From an uncultured Gemmataceae bacterium (lineage in GTDB: Bacteria; Planctomycetota; Planctomycetia; Gemmatales; Gemmataceae): a DNA stretch of 64,000 bases. Below the pieces are notes generated by a model. The model worked only from the letters and a program-made list of their open reading frames with translations, searched no databases and was not told the DNA's origin. Location of the stretch: contig CAWFFC010000026.1 in the NCBI GenBank assembly GCA_963815035.1, positions 97,587-161,586 of the forward strand, written 5' to 3'. The position numbers and the translations under genes were made by a program. Below, one piece after another: positions 13,645 through 57,332 of the stretch (within the stretch, counting starts at the first letter, position 1; each line of letters opens with the position of its first letter).

Positions 13645-13960
13645 CCTCAGGCATACAATCGATAATCGATTCCCGGGAAGATATTGTGCTGGCTCTCGAT
13701 CTCGGCGAGCCAGGATTCGTCGATCCGCTCGTTCTTGATCTGTTCGTAGAGCGCATTGAAGTTGGCCACATGCGTGATCGTGCGTTTGACCGCGTATTCG
13801 ACCATGGTGCCGGTCTTCAAGATGAAGGCCCAATCGGACGACTGGGCGAGCAGTAGTTCGCAGGCGGCCTGGCGAGCACTCGGCAGCCGCGCCGGCGGGG
13901 AAGTCGCCGGCGACTTTTGACGACGGAAGGCACGATGCCAGCCGTCTCGGGCGGATTCAT
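13645..13960 (-). pseudogene. Gene remnant: the C-terminal ~100 codons of a GH57-like (alpha-glucan branching enzyme family) protein, with no start codon, abutting the nadE stop
   Basis: A manual reverse translation gives ..ARQAACELLLAQSSDWAFILKTGTMVEYAVKRTITHVANFNALYEQIKNERIDESWLAEIESQHNIFPGIDYRLYA*. The frame opens just after an in-frame TGA inside the nadE 3' end. Confidence 0.35.
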
Positions 13961-15980
13961 CCCACTTGCTTCAACCAAATCGCAGCCTCCGCATCGCTGG
14001 GCATGCGCCAGTCGCCGCGGGGGGAGAGACTCACGGAGCCGACCTTGGGGCCGTCGGGCAGGCACGAGCGCTTGAATTGGTTGGCGAAGAAGCGCGTCAG
14101 AAAGACTTTGAGCCATTTTTGAATTTCGTCGCGGGAATAGTCGCGGTCGAATTTCGCCTGTTCGGCCAGGTAGAGGATCTTTTCCGGCGGCGAGGCGTAG
14201 CGCAGGAAATGGAACAAGAAAAAGTCGTGCAGCTCGTAGGGGCCGATGCTCGATTCGGTGCATTGAGCCTCGCCTTGAGCACCGGCCGGCAGCAATTCGG
14301 GAGAAATCGGGGTGTCGACGATATCGAGCAGCGTTCGCCGCGCGTCGCCCTTGAATTCGTTTTCCGCCGCCCAGCGGACCAGGAACTTCACCAGTGTCTT
14401 GGGAATGCTGACGTTGGGGTTATACATGCTCATGTGGTCGCCGTTGTAGGTGGACCAGCCAAGCGCGAGTTCGGAGACGTCGCCGGTGCCGACGACGAAG
14501 CCAGCGTTCATGAGCAGGTTCGTTCGCATGCGGGCCTGAACATTTTCGAACACCAGATCCTGGCGGCCGTCGGGGGACAGATCGCCCAGCTTGCGCGTCA
14601 GGCTTTCCACGTCCAAATTCGTCAGATCGATGCCAAATGGGCGATGGCCGAGCGCCCGCATTTCCTCCAGGCAAAGCGAGCGAATATCGGATTCACGCGC
14701 CGTGGCGCCGAGTTGGCGCATCAGGTCGCGGGCGTTCTTCAATGTGCGCGGCGTGGTGCCGAAGCCGGGCATGGTGAAGGCGTTGATCTTGGTTCGCGGC
14801 ATCTCGATCGCATCGCAAGTGCGGCAAGCGACCAAGAGCGCGAGAGTCGAATCGAGGCCGCCGGAGACGCCGATGGCGATGGCGGGTTTGCCGATGTGTT
14901 CGAGCCGTTTGGCCAACCCGCTGACTTGGGTTAGAAAGATTTCCTCGCAACGATCGCGAAGCTGATCCGGTCCCGCGGGCACAAAGGGATGCGCTTCGAC
15001 GATTCGCAGCAGTTTCTCCGCGGCGCTCGCCGATCCGGTGAAGAAGCCGAGCTTGCCGCCGCCCGTGCCGAATTGGATCCGATTGTATTCGCGTTTCATG
15101 CCGGGTTGCGACAGGGCATCGGAAAAGCTGCCGGTGCGCAGCCGGTCGATTCGCAGCCGGTCCATATCGACATCGGAAATGACAAGTTGATCCTCGCGCA
15201 CAAACCGTTTCGATTCGGCGAGGATGGCGCCATTTTCCGCGATGAGGCAGTGTCCGCCGTAGACGATATCGGTGGTGGATTCATCGACGCCGCACGAGCA
15301 ATAGACATAACCCGCCATGCACCGGCCCGATTGGTTGCCGATCAGTTGCCGGCGATAGGCGGCCTTGCCGATGATGTCGTTCGAGGCGGACAGGTTCAGC
15401 AGGATCGTCGCCCCGTTCAGCGCCTGGTGGCTGCTGGGTGGAATCGGCGTCCAGACGTCTTCGCAGACTTCGACGCCGACGGTCACACCCGGCGCGTCAC
15501 TCGCCTCGAACAGAATCTCCGTGCCGAAGGGGATCGAGCGATCGTCGATTTGAATGGTCTTGCTTCGGGCATTCGCCGCGGGACTGAACCAGCGGTCCTC
15601 GTAAAACTCCTTATAGTTGGGGAGATACGATTTTGGAATCAGGGCCAGCAGTTTGCCGCGATGGAGCACCGCGGCGCAGTTGAAGAGTTGATCGTCGTGT
15701 TGGATGGGCACGCCGACAACCGCCAGGCCGGAGAAGATTGAACCGGTGGCGCGCGTCACGGCCGCGAGCGCGTCGCGAGCGGCCGTCAAGGCGCCGATTG
15801 ATGGAAGAGATCGCCGCAGGTGTAGCCGGTGAGGCAGAGCTCGGGAAAAGTCAGCACGCGGACGCCTTGATCTTGCGCTTGTCGCATCAAGGCGATAATC
15901 CGCTCGACGTTGAAATCGCAGCCGGCGACTTTCAGCCGCGGAATGGCGGCGGCGACTCGCAAGAAACCGTGAAAGAGCAT
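13957..15980 (-). CDS. nadE: Glutamine-dependent NAD+ synthetase (nitrilase domain plus NAD synthetase domain), one frameshift near 15786
   Basis: N-terminal piece ORF 15786..15980 (RVAAAIPRLKVAGCDFNVERII..VLTFPELCLTGYTCGDLF) plus ORF 13957..16017 (..VCEDVWTP..; PAIAIGVSGGLDSTLALLVA P-loop-like SGGxDS motif). Confidence 0.85.
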
Positions 15981-16094
15981 GGCAGCCTCGACAGGACATG
16001 GCCCGACAGCCGGGCAAGCGCTCGATTTACTGCCAATATATCAGCAAGCAACGGCGATTCGATCCAAGCCCGATCGACGAAAGGAACTCACGCG

Positions 16095-17087
16095 TTGCCA
16101 GCAACCGACCGAACGATCCGACTTGACGATCCGATTCTGGCGTACATTCGCGAGGATTTTGCTTCGTTGCGACCGGCAATGACGGTCAGTGAAGCGCTCG
16201 CCGCGATTCGCTCGCATGGCCTCGGCGAGCGAATCATTTATTTTTACGTTGCCGATGATGACGATCGTCTAGTGGGCGTGGTGCCGACGCGGCGGCTGCT
16301 CACGGCCGCGGTCGACGCACCTGTCGCCGACATCATGATCGCGAAGGTCATCGCGATTCCTCACACGGCCACCCTCGCCGAGGCCTGTGAGTTTTTCGTG
16401 CTGCACAAGTTCCTGGCCTTCCCCGTGGTCGACGAAAACCGCGTCGTGCGCGGCATTGTCGATGTCGAACTTTACACCAAGGAACTTTTCGATCTGGCGG
16501 ACGTGGAACAGGCGCCGGACACGCTGTTCGAGTCGCTGGGCTTCCATATTTCGCAATTGCGCGGAGCCTCGCCGCTGCGATCGTTTCGCTTTCGTTTCCC
16601 CTGGCTGCTGGCGACGATCGCCGGCGGCACGCTTTGCGCGATCCTGACCAGCGTCTTTGAAACCACGCTCGCCAAGAGCCTGGTGTTGGCCTTTTTTCTG
16701 GCGCTCGTGCTCGGTCTGGCGGAGAGCATCAGCATTCAATCGTTAACGTTGACAATTCAGGCCTTGCGCTCGTCACGTCCGAGTTTGCGCGGCTATCTGC
16801 GAGCCTTGCGTCGTGAAATGCTCGCCGCGATCCTGCTGGGCATCGGTTGCGGTTCGCTCGTTGGCATCATTGTCTTCGTCTGGCACAGTGCCGGCCGAGC
16901 GGGTCTGGCCATTGGATCGGGGATTTTCCTCGCCGCCATCTTCGCCTGCGGATTCGGCGTCACGGTGCCGACGCTGTTGCATGCGCTGAAGCTCGATCCC
17001 AAAGTCGCCGCCGGGCCGATCGTGCTGGCATTGACCGATATTTGCACGCTTCTCTTCTATTTCACGCTGGCAGCGCTCATCTTGTAG
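16095..17087 (+). CDS. mgtE: Magnesium transporter MgtE (CBS pair plus MgtE TM domain); the start is uncertain (TTG at 16095 or ATG at 16179)
   Basis: ..ERIIYFYVADDDDRLVGVVPTRRLL.. CBS region and the C-terminal ..LAESISIQSLTLTIQAL.. MgtE membrane domain; the upstream part of ORF 15738..17087 is antisense to nadE. Confidence 0.8.
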   Translation: MPATDRTIRLDDPILAYIREDFASLRPAMTVSEALAAIRSHGLGERIIYFYVADDDDRLVGVVPTRRLLTAAVDAPVADIMIAKVIAIPHTATLAEACEFFVLHKFLAFPVVDENRVVRGIVDVELYTKELFDLADVEQAPDTLFESLGFHISQLRGASPLRSFRFRFPWLLATIAGGTLCAILTSVFETTLAKSLVLAFFLALVLGLAESISIQSLTLTIQALRSSRPSLRGYLRALRREMLAAILLGIGCGSLVGIIVFVWHSAGRAGLAIGSGIFLAAIFACGFGVTVPTLLHALKLDPKVAAGPIVLALTDICTLLFYFTLAALIL

Positions 17088-17145: not shown

Positions 17146-20100
17146 CTACTCCCCCGCGGCGGGCTCGATCTGAATCGAAAGCGGCTCGATCCATTGCTTG
17201 GCGTCGCTGGTGTAGTAGAGATAGGCCCGGCTGGCTGGCCCGCGATATTCGCCAGGGATGTCGGCGAGCAGGTCAATCGCCAGGTCCAATTTGGCGCCCG
17301 GCTTCGAGCGCTCGCCAGTAGAGCACCAGTTCCCGGCCGCGAATTTCGAAGAAGCTGATATCGCCCGGCAGCAACTCGCCGTTATCGGCCTTTCGCAAGG
17401 TGGCCATTTCCTTCAGTTGCTTCATGTCCTCGGGCACTTTCAGCCCTGCGGGCAAGCCGATCACGGCGACAGTCATCGGCTGGCCCTTGTCCTGGCTCAG
17501 GTTTTCGAGCGACACGTTGAGCCGCACGCCATCGCCCTCGCGGACCTGCCGCTTGTTCAGCTTGGTCGAAAGTTTAACGGCACATTTGTCGGAACTGTTG
17601 GGCGTAATCGCCGAGTAACTCCACCCGATCGTGTAGGGGTACTTGTTCTTGCCAATCAATTCGAGCTTCAACGAGTTCTTGCCCGTTTTCATGAACTGTT
17701 CCGAGTTCTTCACTAGGATCGTGACTGGTTCCTGTCTGCCGGCCGGGAAGGGCATTTGTTCGACAACCTTCCCATTGATTGCAAGGACGAGCACGCCCGC
17801 TTCGGCGGTCTGCTTGCTGGCTTTGGTGTATGCGATCAGCGCCTTGAGCGCCATGATGGTCGATTGCGTCGAACCGAAGCCCCCGTAACCGCCGCGCTGC
17901 TTGTTGATCCACTTCACGGCCTTTTGCAGGCATTGGGTGAATTCCGCCGGCCGGTTCGCCTTCATCCAGCCGAGCATGGCCAGGGCGGTGGTTTCGATTT
18001 GCAGATCGCGGCCGCCGGAGCGGGTGATGCTGGTCTCGGCGCCGGTGAGGCCGCCATCCTCGACTTGCTTGTCGCGAACGCGCTTGAGCAATTCGACGGC
18101 TTGTTTGGCCCGATCGGCCCCATTGCTGTTGAGCAGGGCGTTCGCCAAAAGCGACAGGAAATAAGGATCGGTCGAGTTCGAATGTTCGTGAAGGAGCTTG
18201 TCGATATCCTTGGTCATGTCCTCCTTGCCGGTCTCGGTCAGGGCCCAGACGATGTAGGCGTCGGTGATGTGCTGCGGGGCGCCGCCAAACGAATCGAGCG
18301 CCCGCGGGTTTCGCTCGAAGCCGCCCTCGGGCTTGTGCCGGCTGAGTAAGTACTTTCGTGTCCGTTCGAGCATCTGCTGATCAACCGGATGGACCTGGGC
18401 CATGTCCTTGAACTGCAAAAGGCCATAGGCGGTGAGCGCTTCGTGCGGCGGGGCCATGCCGCCAAACCACTCGTAGCCCTGACGTCCGCCGCCCTGCTTC
18501 TGGCATTCGAACGATGTGAGCCGTTGATAACCGCGGTCCAGCAATTCGCTGGCGCCTGCGCCGCCTGTTTCGCTTCCTTGGTTTCCTGGCCCGATTCCTT
18601 GATGTAATTCAGAATCAGCGTGTTGGGATAATTCGTGGTCGAAGTCTGTTCGAAGCAGCCATAGGGCTCGCGCAATAGGCTTTCCAAGCCCTTTTGCAAA
18701 TCGGCGAGGGTTGATGGGTAGATGCTCGCCCAAACGCTTAAGGAACCTTTCACGTAATCCTTGGGCAGGATCATTTCGTTCTCAGCCACTTTTTCGAGCA
18801 GATCGCTGGCTTGGCCGACATACGGGAAGCCATCGGGCACGATCTTGATCGGCGCGTGACCTGGTCCTCGGCGAACGGTTCGCTTCGGCCGAGAATCGTC
18901 AAGCCTCCGTCGCCTTCGATCAGTGATGGCTGCAATTGGATCACGCGCCGGGTTCGTTTGTTCGGCGGCAGCACGATCGAAGCGGCGGCGCTGCCGCTGA
19001 CAAGGTTGAAGCCTCTCGGCTGCACGGTGACGTTCGCCGCACGTTGCTCGTCCGAATCGTTGGTGATCAGCACCGGGATCGACAGCTTGTCGCCCGCGGT
19101 GACCTCGGCGGGAAGCTTGGCTTCCAGTCCAAACGGCTTGCGCACTTCGAGAATGTGCGTGTCGGCGCCGAGCCGGCCTTCGAGCGTATGCCCCGCGACC
19201 AATACGCGATACTTGGTGATCGAGTCAGAAACATTGAAGCTGATTTTCCCCACGCCAGTTTTGTCGAGAATCAGGGCGGGGTTCCAATAGACGGTCTCGG
19301 CGAAATCGCTACGCTGGCCGGAATTACGTTCGGTATTGATGTGAGCATATTCGCGAACAATGAACGGCTCGGGGGCGGGCATTGACTTGGCATTGCCAAA
19401 TCCGGCTCCGCGGCCGCGGAATCCGCCTCCGGGCAACCCCTGAGCGGGACCGCCGATTCCGCCGCCGCCGAATCCGCCCGCCCGAAGGGGGCGCCGGGCG
19501 CGGGCAAAGCGCCGCCCCGATTAATCCCGCCCATCACGCCACCCTGGGCGAATCGCCGATCTTGGAAACGACCATTGGCTAGTCCGCCCTTGGCTTCATT
19601 CAATTTCCGTTCGAATTCGGCTTCGGCAGCCTGCCGTTGCATAAGCTGCTTGTCTTGCTCACGAAGTCCTAGGGCTTTCTTGGCCATCGCCTCTGGCCTG
19701 ACAAACATTAGACGATTTTCATTCGCACGACGCAGACGATCGATTCCTTGCTCCTGTTTCTCATCAAGGTTGAAGGCACGCGGGAAATTGTCCCGCTTTC
19801 CGGCGGCCTCATTGGGCTTGCCCGGCGCGTTCGTGGGCGCCGCCTGCGCATCCAAAGCGGCCTTGTCCCGGCGCGGTTCCGGCGCAGCCGGTGCGAGTGG
19901 GGCGGCGCCAAGTCCGCCACCTATGCCCCGGCCTCGTAGCTTTCCATCCTTAGCGCCATCGAATTTCGCCGCTGCCTCAGGCAGACCCTCGGCCTCTTTG
20001 CGAAAGTCATTCGGAACGGCCATCGGCGCCGCCGCGCCTTCGACCAACCGATTGCTCTGGCCCGACTTCAAGAAGGCATCGTTTTTCGCGATAAGTTTCC

Positions 20101-23100
20101 CATTGGAGTCGTTGCTCGAAATGGCAAAGCCGATCAGCAGCAGAGCGCCGACGGTGATCGAGCCAGCCGCCGTCACATAATACGGCACGCCGGCCCTCGC
20201 GCCGCGAAAGGCTCCCAGCAACAGCGACACCACGGCGAGCAAGATCGCCGCGCCTGCCAGGGTTGGCACGATGGCGGCCCGTATCCGCGAATTGACGTCG
20301 TCGTAAGGGACCAACGCCAACGCCGCGGCCTGATAATCATGTTCACGCTTCCGAATCTCGGCATCCGTTGCTTGCAATTGCTTGGGAAACTCCGAATCTT
20401 CAGCCGCCGCGAGATTCTCAGTGACCGCGTCCTTCAGCCGCTCTTCCAATTCCTTCATTTTCGGCTGAAACTCGCCTTCGATTTCCTGCTGGCGATGGGC
20501 CAGACTGCTAACCATTCTCTCGCCCGATTGTCCCATCATCACCAGGATGCGTTCGGCGTCTTCGTGGCTGCGTTGCCGGAACTTGTTCGGATCCTGTTCG
20601 GCGAATCGCCGCCAGCCTTGCGTACCGAGAAGCAGATCAAGGGCCAGCGGCGCCTTCGGATGATCGGTCAGCAGGAAGTCGGCGTATTCGAGATGCTCGG
20701 GCTTGCGCACCTCGCCGACAAACATGAAATGCGTCGGCAGCATTCGCGCCGTCTTTTCGTCGGCCATCGTGATGACGGTTTGATTCACCACCGACGCGCC
20801 GACGATGGCCTGCGCCGGCTGGCCCTTCTCGTCAGCCGCCGTGAGCGTGACGGTGGCCTTTTCGCCCGGAGCGTAGCGGCTCTTATCCGGGGTCATGGTG
20901 AATTTGACGGCTTTGCCCGATTTGCGAAACACCAGCCGCTCCGCCACCGGTGCATAAACCTGGCTGGCGGCCGGATTCCGCTGCTCAAAGACGGTGACGC
21001 GAATCACGCCGCCGATGTCGTTGGGCGGTTTCAATTCGACAATCGCGGGTTTGCCGGGCTGCGTCTGCACGCGCTGATGGTCGAGCATGCGTCCGCGGCA
21101 GTAAGCGCCGACATAGAGATTGCGAGCCGGACCGGTCGCAAAAAGTTCGGCGCGGATCGACTGGCCGGCGCTGGTGACGCCGGTCGGCACGCGCAGCACC
21201 ACGCCCTCGCTTTTCACTTCGGGCAGGGGGATCGTTTGGGAAATGCCCGCTGGTTGATCGACCTTGAAAACGTATTTTTCGCCTGCTTTGGGCGTGAATT
21301 CAAACAGACCCAGACCGTGATTGACGCCACGCTCCTTCGCATCATTGAGCGTTTCGACCTTGACGATCTCGCCGCCCTTGGCATCGAGAACGCGCCCTTT
21401 GAGTTCGGCGGGTTTGTCGAGCGGAGTCGTGGCCCGGAAGTAGACGCGGTTGGGCAGTCCGGCGACCAGGTCGCCGCCTTCGGCGAAAAACTTCACGAAC
21501 ATCTTGTTCACGATAATCGGGATCGGCTTTTGAATCGACTCGGTGGCGCCGCCATCGCTAAACGTCACCGTTAGGCTGGCCGACCCTTTGTCAATTTGCT
21601 TGGGCAGGGTGAACCGGACGCTGACCTGGCCCAAGGCGTTCGTTGCGCCATCGGCTCGTGCGGGGATCATTTTGCCATCGACGTTGGCTTCGGCGGCGAC
21701 GACCGGCCGATTCGCCAGCGGGCCTGATTCATTCCAGATCTTGCAATTGGCGACGACTTCCTCACCCGCCCCATAGGTCTTCTTGTGAAAATCCAGTTCC
21801 TTGTTAATCCGGTCGGGCGTGTACTTGTTGACGATGAACTTGCGCTTTTCTTCGGCGAAGCGGTTGTTCAATTCGCGCACGCTGAGCGTATATTCGCCGC
21901 CCGGGAAATCGGGGGCGTCCGGCAGTCGATACGCGCCGGCGCCAATGCCTCGGATGGGCTTGCCGTCCGGGCCGAGAATCGGCTTCGGCGCCTGGCCGGG
22001 GGCCTCTTGCACGCGCGGCTGAGTCGCGCCGGCCATCGAAAAGATCTGTGCCCCCTGCGGATTCGTGATCCGGTATTCGGCGTGGAAATCCTCGGCCGGC
22101 GGCTGCAGCGTGCCGCGATTGAGCGTCAGCGACCGGAAGTAAACTGTTTCGCCCGGCTTGTACATCGGCTTGTCGGTCGTCAACTCGGTGACATAGCGAG
22201 GCGCGGCCCACGACAGCCGCACGTTTTTCAATTCGCTGGGAATTCGGCCTTCCGACGAAGCGCTGACCTCGAGCGACAAATCGGCGTTCGACTTGAACGA
22301 CAGGCTTGGGGGCAAATTGACCTGATACATCCCCTCGCTATGGAAATCATCCTGCCAAACGACGTGATTTTGACCGTCCATGAGTTTAAAGGTAATTCGC
22401 GACGAGACCGTCGAACCATCGGTCACGCGTTTCGTGGTGACGTGGAACGAATTCGGGGCGCCCGGTTGAATCGCCGGCGGGCCGGTCACTTCCAGCAGCA
22501 AGCGATTGTCCCGAATCTGCTTCATGGCCGCCGCCATCGTCTCGTCGTGCTTTTGTTGAAGTTGGCGGATCTGGCCGGCGACGTCCTCGACCTTGGCGCC
22601 GGCGGCCGCCACCTTCGCCTTGTGCTCGGCCAGCAGTTTTTGGTGTTCGTCGGTGGCCCGGCCCAGCTCGACATCCGCGGCGGCAGCCACACTCCGAGCA
22701 TGCACGTATCCCGAAACATGCTTCGCGGTGGGATACGATAGAACGCCGGCGGTCAAGAGGGCGCAGATTGCCGCCGCCCATCGAACAATGGTTCGCATCG
22801 ATCGTTTCGGCGCCTGGGCTGGCGCGGCGGAAATCGGCTGGACTGCAGCCTTTTCGGCGCTGCCGGGCGGTTCGAACCGGACCGTGGGAAACTCGATCCG
22901 CGCGGCCGCGGCGAGCAACTCGCGGGCGCGATCCAGTTCCAGCCGCGCTTCCGGATGCGCCGAAACATACGCCTCGATCTCGGCGACATCCGGCGCATCG
23001 GCCAGTTCGTACAGGTAGTCGAGCAACAGTTCGCGGAAGCGTTCGTGACTGATCATGACCAACTCCAACCCGATTCTTCCATCTTCGTGGTCGACTCGCT

Positions 23101-23116
23101 CCGCAAGTCGCTGCAA
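17146..23116 (-). CDS. Giant ECF anti-sigma-like N-terminus fused to an alpha-2-macroglobulin-like protein (MG domains, thioester GCFEQ, receptor-binding C-terminus), with at least 4 frameshifts; it could also be two adjacent genes
   Basis: ORF 19271..23116: cytoplasmic anti-sigma-like segment, TM, MG2-like domains (YKPGETVYF..), then a ~350-aa hydrophobic/low-complexity insert. ORF 18771..19436: MG domain. ORF 18238..18840: ..REPYGCFEQTSTTNYPN.. thioester. ORF 17273..18733: TED domain. A manually found C-terminal frame ..AKLDLAIDLLADIPGEYRGPASRAYLYYTSDAKQWIEPLSIQIEP.. ends at 17146. Confidence 0.6.
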
Positions 23117-23145
23117 TCAACTCGCGGAGCGAGTTGATTGCAGTA

Positions 23146-23700
23146 TCAAGCCAATACCTTTTTCAATTTCTGCAAGGCCGACCGCATTTGTGTCTTGACG
23201 GTGCCGACCGGGCTCTGGCGAATCTCGGCGATCTGCTCATAGGTCATTCCGCCGTTCTGCCGCAGCAGAAACACTTCTTTCTCTTCTGTCCGCAGGTCGT
23301 GGATGGCCCGCCGCAGGCGCTCGAGATCCTCGCGATTCTCCAGCGCATCGGTGGGGGCCGTTTCGCGAGTGCCCAGCATGGTTTCCTCTCCCATCAGCGG
23401 TTTGACCCGGCGATTCCACGCGGATCGTTGCATGTCTTTGGCCGTGTTCAGTCCGACTCGAAACACCCAGGCGCGCAGGTTCTGAATCTCGGCCACGCCG
23501 TCGCGGTTGCGCCAGCATTTTAGAAACGTATCCTGGGCCGCATCCTGGGCGTCGTCGCGATTGCCCAACAGAAACATGAGCGTGCTGATCAACTCGTCGC
23601 GGAACTCATTGAACGCGCGCACCAGGGTCTGCTCCGGAGTTAGCACTCCATCACAGACCGCGTCCGGTTTGACCGTCGGGATCGCGCCGAGCTTGTTCAT
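23146..23700 (-). CDS. ECF-type RNA polymerase sigma factor (sigma-70 regions 2 and 4)
   Basis: ..LVRAFNEFRDELISTLMFLLGNRDDAQDAAQDTFLKCW.. (region 2) and ..EKEVFLLRQNGGMTYEQIAEIRQSPVGTVKTQMRSALQKLK.. (region 4). Lies 29 bp upstream of the anti-sigma/A2M gene. Confidence 0.8.
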   Translation of the reverse strand: MNKLGAIPTVKPDAVCDGVLTPEQTLVRAFNEFRDELISTLMFLLGNRDDAQDAAQDTFLKCWRNRDGVAEIQNLRAWVFRVGLNTAKDMQRSAWNRRVKPLMGEETMLGTRETAPTDALENREDLERLRRAIHDLRTEEKEVFLLRQNGGMTYEQIAEIRQSPVGTVKTQMRSALQKLKKVLA

Positions 23701-23906
23701 GGCTCCAACCTTACGACGAGGACCCCCCGCGGGCCGATTGTCGATTTCGAAAAATTCCTTGGCGTTTTGGGCAAAGCGCATGCTAACCGCCGCGAGGGGG
23801 ATGGACAAGAGATTTGAGAACGAGAGTTACGGACGACGAAACCTTGTGAAGCGCGCCGCGAGGCTACGATATTTAACGTCCTGCATATTTCCCATGAGAC
23901 GAACCA

Positions 23907-24220: not shown

Positions 24221-24667
24221 TTATCTCGCAACTCCCCAGACCGATCCAGTGAAGCGCTCGCCAGCCAGGTTGACGCACCGTGTAGATCAGAAACATTCCC
24301 GCGGTAGGCGATTCCCAAACGAATAACGGCGGTCGCCAATTCTTAACCGGCTCAGCATTCGCCGGCCTTCCTTCGCTAGCTCGCAACTCTTTTCGGCAAT
24401 TTCGAAGTACTGAGCGGCGTGTCGTCTGCGCTCGTGAGGATCGGCCGACAATCCTCTGCGCCAGGACGCGAATGCGTCCCGCGCACCGACATGCACTTTG
24501 ACGTCGACTTTCATTCCTTGCCCCCAGGTCGTCCTGCCGAGTGGCAATGACTCTATCTGCGATCGACGCTTCGAGCAAGTAGTAAGCGGTCCGTGGCAGC
24601 CGGATTGCTACAATGCCAAAAAGCGGATTGCCAAGATCATCCGGCCCCATTTTCCCTTGAACCAGGG

Positions 24668-25550
24668 ATGGAAATGCGGACCCGCAGAAACCAGGTGCTC
24701 GCCAAACCCGCCGACACGAATGTGCCCGCCGATACGGGTCCGTGGGAAGAGGCGCTGGGACCAACTTTCGGATAAGGCTCGCGGCGAGTACCTGCGGGTT
24801 GCGCCGCAATTGCTGCCGGGTTTCCAGTACTTTTACTTCTCCGGCCCGAGGATCAACGAGCGGCTGCTCGCGGAACTTCAATCCGCCGGACTCATCGAAC
24901 CGCGCACGGCATTGAAGGGAGGCGCCGCCTACGCCATTCCAGGCGAAGCCGTGCCTTTTGCCCAGAAAATCAGTTCCTTGAGATATCAGCACCCATTGAC
25001 ACTCGAATCCAATTCCTTGTCCGAGTTTCTCACGATCGACGTCCAGATGTCGCGACAGCGGTACCGAGCGCTGGTCGAATTGGCGAGGAAATCATCGTTC
25101 AAGGCGCGGACGACCGAATTGCTGCTCACACAATTGATTCCCAATCCCCGCTGGCATGAACTGGTGCTCGACGACTTGCAGCGCCACCCCGTCGCCGTGC
25201 GACTGATTGAAATGTTCCGCGAGCGCCAGGCGCCGATGCACAAAGCCGAGGTTCCAGGCCACCTCCGCGAATGGCCGGCCAGTATGGTGCGCACCGTGCT
25301 CGACGGTCTCATATACCGGCTGGTGCTCGTTGAAGAATTATCAAAGCAGTCGCGTCGCCTAGTCGTCGGCATGCCCAAGGCCGCGCGCGATCAATGGGGA
25401 AAATTCAAGGCCTGGCCCGCCGAGCGGCCTGCCATGTCGGCCGCGCCCCATCCCGCACAGGTTGGTCCGGCCAATGGCTTCCTGGTCGCCGATCTTCGGG
25501 CCACGTTGATCGAATTGTTGCGGCTTCCGGCGCCTGAAGGCGAACAATGA
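24668..25550 (+). CDS. Hypothetical protein, one frameshift near 24770; possibly the N-terminal part of a single ~700-aa protein that continues into the 25609 ORF
   Basis: MEMRTRRNQVLAKP.. continues in the frame of ORF 24498..25550 (..GEYLRVAPQLLPGFQYFYFSGPRINERLLAELQ..). Confidence 0.4.
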
Positions 25551-25608
25551 TGTTTACGTCAAGGAAATCCCTCGCTTTGCTTCGGTACTAACGCCGCTGC
25601 CCGACTGG

Positions 25609-26781
25609 TTGACCGGCCAAGAGCATTCCGACTCGACCGGGCGAGCATTGACTGCGCTCACGCGTCTGTTCAGTCTTGAATTCGCCGAAGGTCGCGATCG
25701 CGATGGCGTCACCGAAATGCAGGTGACCCGCGCCGGCCAGGATTGGCTCGGCAAGCCGACGGAAGAGCAATACGCGGTTATCGCCAGGTTCTTTAGCGAC
25801 TCGAGTGTGCGGTCCAGTCGTTATTATCCATTGCACGGCGACAACGATTTCATGGTCAGCAGCGTGATCTCAGTCCCGGTCAACGACCGCAGGAAGCCGC
25901 CCAACTTTTGGAACCTGAAGCCCGAGGACATCAAGCCCATGCGGCAGGCGTTCGCGCGCTGCTTCGATGAGTTGCCGATCGGCGAGTTCTATCCGCTCGC
26001 CGATTTCGTCGCTCATGCGTGCCACGGAACCAACAATCCCCTGCGCCTCGGCCGCGACGACGGCGAGTATGAAGTGGTGTCGGACGATCGGCCCGTCTCG
26101 CCATTTCCGGAAGTGCTCGATCCGTTGGCCGCGAATGCCCTCAAGAAACTGATCCTGGAACGGCTCATACCGTTCGGCGGCGTGCAGGGCGGCTGGGACG
26201 GCCGCCGACTTTTAATTGCGCGCCAGCCGCTGTGCGACCTGTATTTCGGCCGCCCGTCGGCGAAGCCGCGATTGATCACGGCCGCCGATGCCGGTAAAGT
26301 CGTCGTGCAACCCGATTTCTCCATCTTGATCATCGGCGAGAACCCGGCGTCCGCGGCTGAATTGGCCCCGTTTTGCGAGCGCAAACCGGGTTCTGCCAGC
26401 CACGGTACGCTGCACTTCGTCCTGACCAAGTCGTCGGTCGTGCGCGCGGCCATGGCCGGCATTTCCGCCCGGGAGATCCTGGCCCGATTGGAACGCCATT
26501 CGAGCGTGCCGATTCCGGGAAATGTCCGGCACGAGATCGGCGAATGGGCCGGGACGGTTTGCCACGTCAACGTCGAGCTCCGCATCCTGATTCGCTGCCC
26601 GGACGCCTCGGCCGCCGTGCGCGTCGCCGGGCTGTTGGGGAAAGACGCCGAGCGAATCGGCGGAACGGCGGTCGCTGTTCCGATCGGAAGTTGGACCGCG
26701 AATGCGAAGAGAAAACTTCGCGAGGCCGGCATCGTTCTTCCGCCGGACCCCGTTCCGCAGCAGCGCCGATATCGATATTGA
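25609..26781 (+). CDS. Hypothetical protein; its C-terminal region resembles the XPB/Ssl2 N-terminal 'helicase-associated' domain (weak, from memory)
   Basis: ..HFVLTKSSVVRAAMAGISAREILARLERHSSVPIPGNVRHEIGEWAG..; the upstream in-frame sequence reads on without a stop toward the 24668 gene. Confidence 0.45.
   Translation: MTGQEHSDSTGRALTALTRLFSLEFAEGRDRDGVTEMQVTRAGQDWLGKPTEEQYAVIARFFSDSSVRSSRYYPLHGDNDFMVSSVISVPVNDRRKPPNFWNLKPEDIKPMRQAFARCFDELPIGEFYPLADFVAHACHGTNNPLRLGRDDGEYEVVSDDRPVSPFPEVLDPLAANALKKLILERLIPFGGVQGGWDGRRLLIARQPLCDLYFGRPSAKPRLITAADAGKVVVQPDFSILIIGENPASAAELAPFCERKPGSASHGTLHFVLTKSSVVRAAMAGISAREILARLERHSSVPIPGNVRHEIGEWAGTVCHVNVELRILIRCPDASAAVRVAGLLGKDAERIGGTAVAVPIGSWTANAKRKLREAGIVLPPDPVPQQRRYRY

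Positions 26782-26842: not shown

Positions 26843-30239
<3,397 letters not shown>

Positions 30240-54925: not shown

Positions 54926-57332
<2,407 letters not shown>

Follow-up and report, generated by a model that had tools for sequence, protein, structure and literature searches.

Organization of the locus

We describe here a two-gene locus in a 64,000-nucleotide stretch of DNA (the window; all coordinates are positions within it unless a locus is named) from an uncultured Gemmataceae bacterium (GenBank assembly GCA_963815035.1, contig CAWFFC010000026.1). A gene for an extracytoplasmic function (ECF) sigma factor is followed by one very long gene whose predicted product joins a cytoplasmic anti-sigma domain, three transmembrane (TM) helices and a complete alpha-2-macroglobulin (A2M) body (Table 1). 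An earlier annotation made without database searches, the sequence-only reading, had reported an ECF sigma factor and then a single very long frame here, coding for a fusion of about 1,950 aa; both genes are confirmed, on the minus strand, and the fusion is a single gene, although its length after repair of the reading frame is 1,970 aa. The distance of 29 bp that had been given between the two genes is measured to a TTG that is only the start of the mechanically called open reading frame (ORF); the ATG that agrees with the starts of homologs lies 89 nt after the sigma stop.

The fusion gene is not open throughout. An uninterrupted ORF of 1,281 codons (23116..19274, minus strand) spans the helical head, the first TM helix, macroglobulin (MG) domains, two more hydrophobic helices and a low-complexity run, and three-frame translation shows three more long open segments downstream of it, in other frames, reaching 17149. 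A homolog of 1,996 aa (P0001; P and L numbers are our handles for homologous proteins and loci) covers the gene from end to end in five frame pieces when used as a tblastn query against the window, and there are exactly four frame switches, at about 19480 (-1, in a Gly-rich run), 18850 (-1), 18553 (-1) and 17305 (+1), where at least four had been counted before. Reading of the junctions shows that all of the indels are single-base (three 1-nt deletions and one 1-nt insertion). None of the correct frame pieces contains an in-frame stop, and the C-terminal pieces are ~70-85% identical to P0001, with 82% for the one that contains the larger part of the thioester domain (TED).

Four frameshifts within 5.9 kb raise the question of whether the gene is decaying in this genome, in which case the frameshifts would be real and the locus would yield no more than the sigma factor and a shortened membrane protein; out-of-frame tails also end some homologs in other assemblies. 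However, essential genes of the same window are worse hit per kb. The isoleucyl-tRNA synthetase (IleRS) gene (26843-30236, plus strand) lies in at least seven frame pieces when compared with an intact 1,149-aa ortholog, and the N and C domains of enolase (55507-57332, plus strand) are in different frames; for IleRS this is at least seven indels in 3.4 kb, against four in the 5.9 kb of the fusion gene. With roughly one indel in every 0.5-1.5 kb of the assembly, any frameshift in the window deserves distrust. Because the essential IleRS gene, with more indels per kb, and enolase are broken too, the four frameshifts of the fusion gene are best read as sequencing or assembly errors and not as biology. 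The pseudogene call is unsupported for the same reason, that essential genes are broken more often than the fusion gene, and with the lack of in-frame stops, the single-base nature of every indel and the identity to P0001 retained by the C-terminal pieces we regard decay as very improbable.

A broken reading frame is likewise all that speaks for a split into two genes, one for an ordinary anti-sigma factor and the next for an independent, secreted A2M. Indels run through the whole assembly and the frameshifts are therefore uninformative on one gene versus two, but no stop codon splits the head and first TM helix from the MG domains, the first frame break comes 1,190 codons into the gene, inside the linker described below, and the C-terminal half, which lacks its own signal peptide, relies on the third TM helix for export. 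In more than 100 homologs a single unbroken ORF of 1,800-2,100 aa encodes the domains in this order. The sequence-only reading had pointed to a genuine stop codon between the anti-sigma factor and a signal-peptide-bearing A2M gene as the arrangement that would undo a fusion; what is found is the 1,281-codon ORF and these continuous homologs, and since this ORF of the window already refutes the two-gene alternative, we give it almost no credence.

Table 1. Features of the sigma/anti-sigma-A2M locus in window coordinates; residues are those of the repaired 1,970-aa fusion protein
Feature	Residues	Position	Strand	Remarks
ECF-type promoter of the operon (predicted)		23711..23743	-	CAATCG-N16-TCGTCG; ends ~18 nt before the sigma ATG
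ECF sigma factor gene		23146..23700	-	184 aa; ATG 23700, TGA 23148..23146
Perfect 15-bp inverted repeat		23111..23143	-	CTGCAATCAACTCGC tcc GCGAGTTGATTGCAG; 3-nt loop; begins 2 nt past the sigma stop
Anti-sigma/A2M fusion gene		17146..23056	-	ATG 23056; stop TAG 17148..17146; 1,970 aa once repaired
Frame pieces of the fusion gene		23056-19481, 19478-18852, 18849-18553, 18553-17306, 17304-17149	-	tblastn with P0001 and reading of junctions
Cytoplasmic anti-sigma domain (predicted)	1-55	22892..23056	-	three-helix bundle; zinc-less derivative of the zinc-associated type
TM1	89-107	22736..22792	-	hydropathy scan
Periplasmic stalk helix	108-184	22505..22735	-	AlphaFold model
MG1 to first half of MG6	185-750	20807..22504	-	equivalent of the C3/C4/C5 beta chain
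Conserved small helical domain	751-850	20507..20806	-	short helices 759-840 in AlphaFold model
Second stalk segment	851-928	20273..20506	-	long helices back toward the membrane
TM2, basic cytoplasmic loop, TM3	929-947, 948-960, 961-979	20120..20272	-	hydropathy scan
Low-complexity Ala/Gly/Pro linker, candidate bait or tether	980-1228	19374..20119	-	holds frameshift 1
Second half of MG6, MG7, first half of CUB	1229-1443	18730..19373	-	Pfam A2M, 7e-14; holds frameshift 2
Thioester domain	1444-1744	17828..18729	-	Pfam TED_complement, 1.5e-33; holds frameshift 3
GCFEQ motif		18660..18646	-	within TED
Asp1589	1589	18295..18293	-	within TED
Second half of CUB and MG8/receptor-binding-like domain	1745-1970	17149..17827	-	weak bMG10; holds frameshift 4

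The sigma factor and its predicted promoter

The product of the sigma ORF (220 aa as a mechanical ORF, 23808..23146) matches Pfam Sigma70_r2 (residues 66-132) and Sigma70_r4_2 (residues 163-215), and has no Pfam match to region 1 or region 3. It scores 79.9 bits against TIGR02937 (cut-off 42.9); none of the specific NCBIfam models is matched at its threshold. The orthologs encoded upstream of the fusion gene in other loci are mostly 54-88% identical by tblastn, and called genes of 184-185 aa lie directly upstream of the fusion gene in L001-L004, L085 and L086.

An ECF-type promoter, with an AAC-like -35 and a CGT-like -10 element, is predicted for the operon; its family consensus is CAATCc-N16-TCGTCT. 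Of 52 loci, 48 have the pattern AA[AT]C-N15-17-CGTC ahead of the sigma gene, at a constant spacing from the start codon and in 43 loci with N17, where shuffled sequences lead one to expect 0.64. When scored with a position weight matrix (PWM) the site in the window reaches 27.3 bits and the runner-up anywhere in the 64 kb only 16.2, and the scan shows no second strong site of the operon type in the window. Scans of the locus for sigma-70 promoters and for terminators were at or below chance. Because the putative ECF-type promoter is conserved, the operon is probably autoregulated.

Few extra sites with this motif were found in about 0.9 Mb of related loci. One of them (L035, 2889-2921, plus strand; 21.4 bits) precedes by ~45 nt the gene of an A2M paralog with another type of head and with no sigma gene beside it; this single case is a hint that other A2M paralogs, too, are driven by the sigma factor. 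In one locus only, a second motif of 26.7 bits (L062, 3245-3277, minus strand) faces away from the sigma gene and toward a gene for a secreted protein with VIT and von Willebrand A (vWA) domains, which on inspection of its sequence is like the inter-alpha-trypsin-inhibitor heavy chains.

The 95-nt spacer between the sigma and anti-sigma genes has a predicted folding energy of -41.8 kcal/mol (RNAfold) and contains the inverted repeat as well as an overlapping alternative stem. We considered this hairpin as a conserved regulatory element and rejected it, as other loci have unrelated hairpins or none. Palindromes that are unrelated to it are seen at the sigma/anti-sigma gap in L026, L019 and L016, sometimes 30 bp long; intergenic palindromes of this kind may be species-specific elements, or hairpins that tune the ratio of sigma to anti-sigma.

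The anti-sigma domain

The N-terminal part of the fusion protein was modelled with AlphaFold from a 39-sequence alignment (mean predicted local distance difference test score, pLDDT, 82.9); the model covers residues 1-1000, since the low-complexity tail of the full 1,192-aa first piece misaligned. The head forms three helices (residues 4-15, 21-33 and 35-52) with pLDDT >90. A profile of the N-termini of the family matches the solved anti-sigma factors RslA (3HUG_B, 1.9e-5), RsrA (5e-3) and RsiW (0.026), and also DdvA. In an alignment of 29 family N-termini the consensus is C4...H30-x3-C34-x2-C37, that is C-x25-H-x3-C-x2-C, and 22 of the 29 match Pfam zf-HC2. Because of these matches we assign the head, by sequence and model, as an anti-sigma domain derived from the zinc-associated anti-sigma (ZAS) type, for which binding to the sigma factor is predicted. 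In the window copy and its six closest relatives the zinc ligands C4, H30, C34 and C37 are all replaced (the window head reads Y-x3-H-x2-A, YVSAHPEA, at the H-x3-C-x2-C motif), but 22 of the 29 aligned sequences retain them; the domain of this clade is predicted to be zinc-free. The anti-sigma-like N-terminus that the sequence-only reading described, helical and followed by a TM helix, is thus present, in a form that has lost its zinc ligands.

Membrane topology and the candidate bait region

The protein had been taken for single-pass, but a hydropathy scan identifies three TM helices. TM1 is kept at about residue 90 in most of 120 relatives that were scanned, and in the model it is part of one continuous helix (residues 93-184) made up of TM1 and ~75 periplasmic residues. 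Beta-sandwich domains at 186-750 are followed by the small helical domain, which carries a conserved LDLLLGTQGWRRFAEQ motif with most positions invariant, and by long helices at 851-885, 889-913, 916-951 and 957-984, the last two of which hold TM2 and TM3. In nearly every one of the 120 relatives the TM2-TM3 hairpin lies ~110 aa past an invariant GWRRF motif. The loop between TM2 and TM3 has a median length of 11 aa in homologs, with means of 2.7 for K+R and 0.1 for D+E, and because a short basic loop fits the positive-inside rule it is placed in the cytoplasm. This hairpin accounts for the two hydrophobic helices that the sequence-only reading had seen in the bait segment; they stand before the linker.

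The linker that follows is 135-312 aa long in homologs, with 42% A+G+P compared to 26.5% overall, and the equivalent segment of a homolog that was also modelled (P0243; see below) has a pLDDT of ~30. In a profile alignment the insert between MG6 and MG7 (profile positions 760-1185), which comprises the helical domain, the stalk, the hairpin and the linker, corresponds to residues 581-662 of CD109, its bait. The bait position inside MG6 is held by a helical domain, a stalk, a TM hairpin and a disordered linker of 135-312 aa. A hydrophobic and low-complexity segment had been proposed at the bait position from the letters alone, and it does stand at the place of the A2M bait region and of the ANA domain in C3. 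Conservation along the protein is uneven, with mean pairwise identities of 63.5% for the TED, 60% for the helical domain, about 45% for the MG domains, 38.5% for the head, 19% for the linker and 17% for the stalk segments.

The last 40-80 residues of the linker (19374-19520, minus strand) are rich in Gly, Phe and Arg (GGFGGGGIGG...GGGFRGRGAGFG) both here and in P0001, and the first frameshift falls inside them. GC-rich repeats at this end of the linker may explain why some database homologs (P0081, P0098) are truncated there by frameshifts.

The macroglobulin ring and thioester domain

In comparison with Pfam the repaired protein matches MG2, A2M (7e-14) and TED (1.5e-33), with weak matches to A2M_BRD and bMG10 (0.029) and no match to A2M_recep. 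The beta-sandwich part of the model aligns in Foldseek with the whole beta chains of C3, C5 and C4 (~640-650 columns, E 1e-27, target TM-score 0.54-0.57), and because these chains align in their entirety it is assigned as MG1-MG5 with the first half of MG6 and linker. The several MG domains and the thioester domain noted by the sequence-only reading hold up in these profile and fold searches; its A2M receptor-binding-like C-terminus finds support in the fold and in the weak bMG10 match, though not from A2M_recep. PF17973 is on record for several homologs.

The C-terminal half was modelled in P0243, a 1,116-aa fragment that extends from MG6 to the natural C-terminus, and pLDDT values are 85-97 across MG7, CUB, the alpha-alpha TED and the last beta domain. 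This model superposes best on native A2ML1, CD109, A2M and Salmonella A2M (rmsd 6-7 A over ~765 columns, TMq ~0.5), and it fits induced A2M, C3b and trypsin-activated ECAM poorly (TMq 0.21-0.29). Judged by the homolog, the C-terminal half is predicted to be folded as a native, unfired A2M with an MG8 domain that shields the thioester.

The TED matches CD109 and A2M (1.7e-24 and 1e-18, phmmer), and its GCFEQ motif aligns with the GCGEQ of both. The motif had been called non-canonical; it is present here as reported, but it is no oddity of this copy, since it occurs in all 106 of the TED-bearing homologs and is, by alignment, the invariant form of the CxEQ thioester motif in this family, for which a thioester bond is predicted, between Cys1468 and Gln1471 in the window protein. 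Asp1589, in the sequence RALDSF, aligns with the His of CD109 (VIH) and with the Asn of human A2M, and the [AG]LD.FG motif that contains it is found in 94 of the 106. Work on C4A and C4B is said to show that Asp or Asn at this position leads to direct reaction with amines and not to the His-catalysed reaction with hydroxyls.

A profile built from 22 members of the family finds CD109 (3e-55) and A2M (1e-45) among the sequences of the PDB, with A2ML1, TEP1, C4 and C3, in each case from profile position 1185 onward. The same profile gives 3e-7 with E. coli YfhM and 2e-4 with Salmonella A2M, the solved bacterial A2Ms. Across the family, the MG7-CUB-TED portion is far closer by sequence to CD109, A2M and A2ML1 than to the solved enterobacterial A2Ms.

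The family, its sigma genes and its interchangeable heads

Using the 1,281-aa piece as query, 183 relatives were retrieved from a collection of 5.8 billion proteins. Most of them are single proteins of 1,800-2,100 aa with PF01835, PF00207 and PF07678, about a third also have PF13490 (zf-HC2), and members carry database labels such as 'alpha-2-macroglobulin family protein', 'anti-sigma factor RsiW' or hypothetical. A search with the hairpin region alone yields at least 732 cluster representatives at 50% identity, of which 377 have E <= 1e-10, and a scan of one genome per species located at least 564 loci. Among the matches listed these are mostly Gemmataceae/Gemmatales, and others belong to Pirellulales, Thermoguttaceae and Isosphaerales-like metagenome-assembled genomes (MAGs). 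Cultured carriers include Limnoglobus roseus PX52 (L080; NZ_CP042425, at ~3.433 Mb) and, with the second head type described below, Gemmata algarum JC673. Several MAGs have two or more paralogs (L017/L062, L035/L042, L008/L077).

By a strict test, an ortholog of the sigma gene is present on the same strand 12-169 nt upstream in 20 of 20 loci; a looser positional test finds one upstream in 55 of 84, a set that includes loci without upstream DNA or with other heads. Other planctomycete genomes, where the sequence-only reading had suggested looking, thus have sigma, anti-sigma and A2M in the same order. In the neighbourhoods of P0001, P0006 and P0064 a 184-aa sigma gene is directly upstream in each, and nothing else is common to them. 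The genes that flank the pair in the window (13957-17087 and 24498-26781) are unrelated to it; they are a NAD synthase gene (minus strand), an MgtE magnesium transporter gene (plus strand) convergent with the fusion gene, and two plus-strand ORFs upstream of the sigma gene, one of which carries a Helicase_C_3 domain. There are no matches to the PADLOC defence models.

The same body is also found with other heads. A second subfamily (L027, 3345-9685; L029; L045, 2394-9046) has the three-TM A2M body with a different helical N-terminus, weakly matching an NCBIfam anti-sigma model, and its gene start overlaps the stop codon of a different ECF sigma gene (TIGR02989, 145.7 bits; cut-off 124.55). In P0100 and P0114, whose genes lie directly downstream of a sigma gene (Sigma70_r2 match only), a zf-HC2-like motif and a Ser/Thr kinase precede TM1, and further heads occur on the body without an adjacent sigma gene. 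The strongest argument that the three-TM A2M body is, as far as sequence comparison can tell, a sensor module is its combination with at least three sigma-linked outputs.

A proposed mechanism and its alternatives

Our preferred interpretation, which on balance we consider probable, is that the locus is a two-gene ECF module in which a three-pass inner-membrane anti-sigma factor bears a complete periplasmic sensor of the A2M/complement type that is fired by cleavage of its bait. By analogy, it is plausible that the module answers an attack by periplasmic proteases with a change in transcription. By sequence and models the anti-sigma domain lies in the cytoplasm, with TM1 running into the long stalk helix that bears MG1-MG6; the chain then returns by way of the helical domain and the further stalk helices to the TM2-TM3 hairpin, and re-emerges as the disordered linker of ~250 aa, followed by the rest of MG6, MG7, CUB, TED and MG8. 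The bait would be the disordered linker, possibly together with other stretches of the insert that separates the two MG6 halves. A protease reaching the periplasm would cut it, the body would rearrange in the manner of A2M, and the thioester would capture the protease by amine attack, an Asp sitting where C3 has its catalytic His. A shift of the TM2-TM3 hairpin and stalk relative to TM1 would free the sigma factor, or switch the Ser/Thr kinase in the kinase-headed paralogs, and freed sigma would activate its own operon along with whatever other promoters of this type exist.

Several points weigh against this interpretation. We infer proteolysis as the stimulus only from homology to the A2M architecture. 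Cleavage in the linker would leave the TM1-attached periplasmic domain at full length, and since that domain is not shortened, classical site-1/site-2 proteolysis does not follow and a conformational route has to be assumed. The lengths of the two stalk segments co-vary (r = 0.89, n = 69 proteins, a statistic inflated by relatedness), which fits a paired stalk, but the packing of the helices is a prediction of the model. The structure of the C-terminal half is that of P0243 and not of the window protein. The window head, taken alone, has no Pfam match and is below the zf-HC2 threshold, and it has lost every zinc ligand. Finally, there are natural short forms (P0008, P0078, P0101) that end just past the second half of MG6 and lack MG7-CUB-TED-MG8, from which it follows that the thioester half is dispensable for the role of the N-terminal unit. 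The P0008 gene is present in at least two samples (L085, 7001-11107; L086, 1360-5466), and its locus is syntenic with that of a full-length form (L002), in the order IleRS, sigma, fusion gene, PanB and FGGY kinase.

A protein without the thioester half that keeps the head, MG1-MG6, the hairpin and the linker could be a sensor by itself, and this raises an alternative in which the ectodomain responds to something other than a protease, such as envelope or outer-membrane damage, a surface or a macromolecular ligand, with the MG ring as scaffold and the thioester tagging a target or the cell's own wall in the manner of complement. The helical domain between MG6 and the stalk, 60% identical and with no counterpart in A2M bait regions, is consistent with this, as are the non-inhibitor thioester proteins C3, C4 and TEP1 among the closest solved relatives. 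Yet the homolog model predicts a native, thioester-shielded A2M arrangement of the C-terminal half, a hypervariable disordered linker at the bait position is the hallmark of a protease bait, and an Asp at the His position speaks, from the alignment and what is reported for C4A and C4B, against C3-like tagging of hydroxyls. We consider a non-protease input distinctly unlikely.

A further alternative concerns what is switched on. The body could be foremost a protective inhibitor like ECAM/YfhM, a membrane-anchored protease trap under homeostatic feedback rather than a general sensor of stress, with the head reporting consumed or degraded molecules and the sigma factor replenishing hardly more than its own operon. 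Within the 64 kb the operon alone has a strong promoter site of this type, none of the other neighbouring genes is conserved, and of the few extra sites in the related loci one precedes another A2M paralog, all of which would suit such a loop. These scans covered flanks rather than whole genomes, however, one extra site precedes the secreted VIT-vWA protein, and the kinase-headed paralogs suggest wider signalling. A feedback loop differs from the bait-triggered module only in the size of its output, and we think it unlikely.

Extending the bait-triggered module to the family as a whole, the thioester protein could act as a transmembrane receptor of Planctomycetes, in which firing of the periplasmic trap, with its bait cut and its thioester exposed, would be transmitted through the co-evolving stalk and the three-helix membrane bundle to interchangeable outputs, either of two kinds of anti-sigma head or a kinase. 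We put this general form forward tentatively, as a possibility that falls short of probable.

Significance

The stimulus is unknown for most ECF sigma factors, whereas the trigger of A2M is well understood in animals and enterobacteria, where cleavage is followed by conformational collapse and covalent capture; a sensor built on such a machine has a concrete and testable input. If the interpretation is right, this would be the first member of the A2M family wired to gene regulation, the first prokaryotic signal transducer built from a thioester protein, and the first A2M with a membrane-crossing bait region. Three different cytoplasmic heads on one body would mark a general-purpose periplasmic sensor of the Planctomycetes. 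Because the family, a large one, is nearer to CD109, A2M and C3 than to the solved enterobacterial A2Ms, it bears on thioester protein evolution and could bear on the origin of the animal thioester proteins.

The sequence-only reading knew of no described system of this kind, and full-text searches of the literature on sigma/anti-sigma factors with macroglobulin, thioester or Planctomycetes, a search that lay apart from the planctomycete ECF surveys, likewise turned up no description of the sigma/anti-sigma-A2M arrangement; the main text of the ECF reclassification paper, as distinct from its supplements, has no mention of MG2 or A2M.

Comparison with known systems

Both halves of the module are of known kinds, the one an ECF sigma/ZAS anti-sigma pair and the other a member of the A2M/TEP superfamily. 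Neither kind is known to include such a fusion, a membrane hairpin at the bait position or a body that recurs under other heads, and we know of no other A2M with a membrane hairpin inside its bait region.

Pairs of ECF sigma factors with Ser/Thr kinases occur as planctomycete ECF-STK groups and in the Vibrio EcfP/PknT type. P0100 and P0114 resemble these in having a kinase head behind a sigma gene, whereas the window copy has an anti-sigma head; the literature that we searched yielded no description of a kinase of the ECF-STK class with an A2M ectodomain.

The locus also resembles the pairs of an ECF sigma factor with a ZAS-type (zf-HC2, class I) anti-sigma factor, such as SigL-RslA, SigR-RsrA and SigW-RsiW. 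The sigma factor has regions 2 and 4 only, the anti-sigma gene is directly downstream, an N-terminal helical anti-sigma domain precedes a TM helix, the family has the C-x25-H-x3-C-x2-C consensus, and an autoregulatory ECF-type promoter is predicted from its motif. The differences are an extracytoplasmic part of ~1,850 aa instead of a small domain, three crossings of the membrane, the loss of the zinc ligands in the window clade, and the difficulty of applying size-gated site-2 cleavage to the fusion protein.

With the bacterial A2Ms (E. coli ECAM/YfhM and Salmonella A2M) the fusion protein shares the periplasmic MG ring, CUB, a TED with CxEQ and a C-terminal MG domain, as well as anchoring in the inner membrane and a presumed role in defence against proteases that enter the periplasm. 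It differs in being anchored by TM helices and not by lipid, with no signal peptide or lipobox, in having no pbpC partner among the genes adjoining its own, in the TM hairpin and long linker that replace a short bait, and in the fused signalling head; the sequence similarity is distant, as seen in the E values of 3e-7 and 2e-4 against 3e-55 for CD109.

The best matches in both sequence and fold are to the eukaryotic thioester proteins (CD109, A2M, A2ML1, insect TEP1 and C3/C4), with which it shares MG1-MG6, CUB, TED and MG8 in the same order and a break between beta-like and alpha-like parts at the same point as the C3 processing site/ANA domain and the A2M bait; CD109 is also membrane-anchored. 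Unlike these, it is of bacterial origin, it has GCFEQ for GCGEQ and an Asp at the position of the C3 His, it lacks a C345C domain and no ANA domain was detected in it, and it has an insert between the MG6 halves that is predicted to dip through the membrane and a head that would signal in the cytoplasm.

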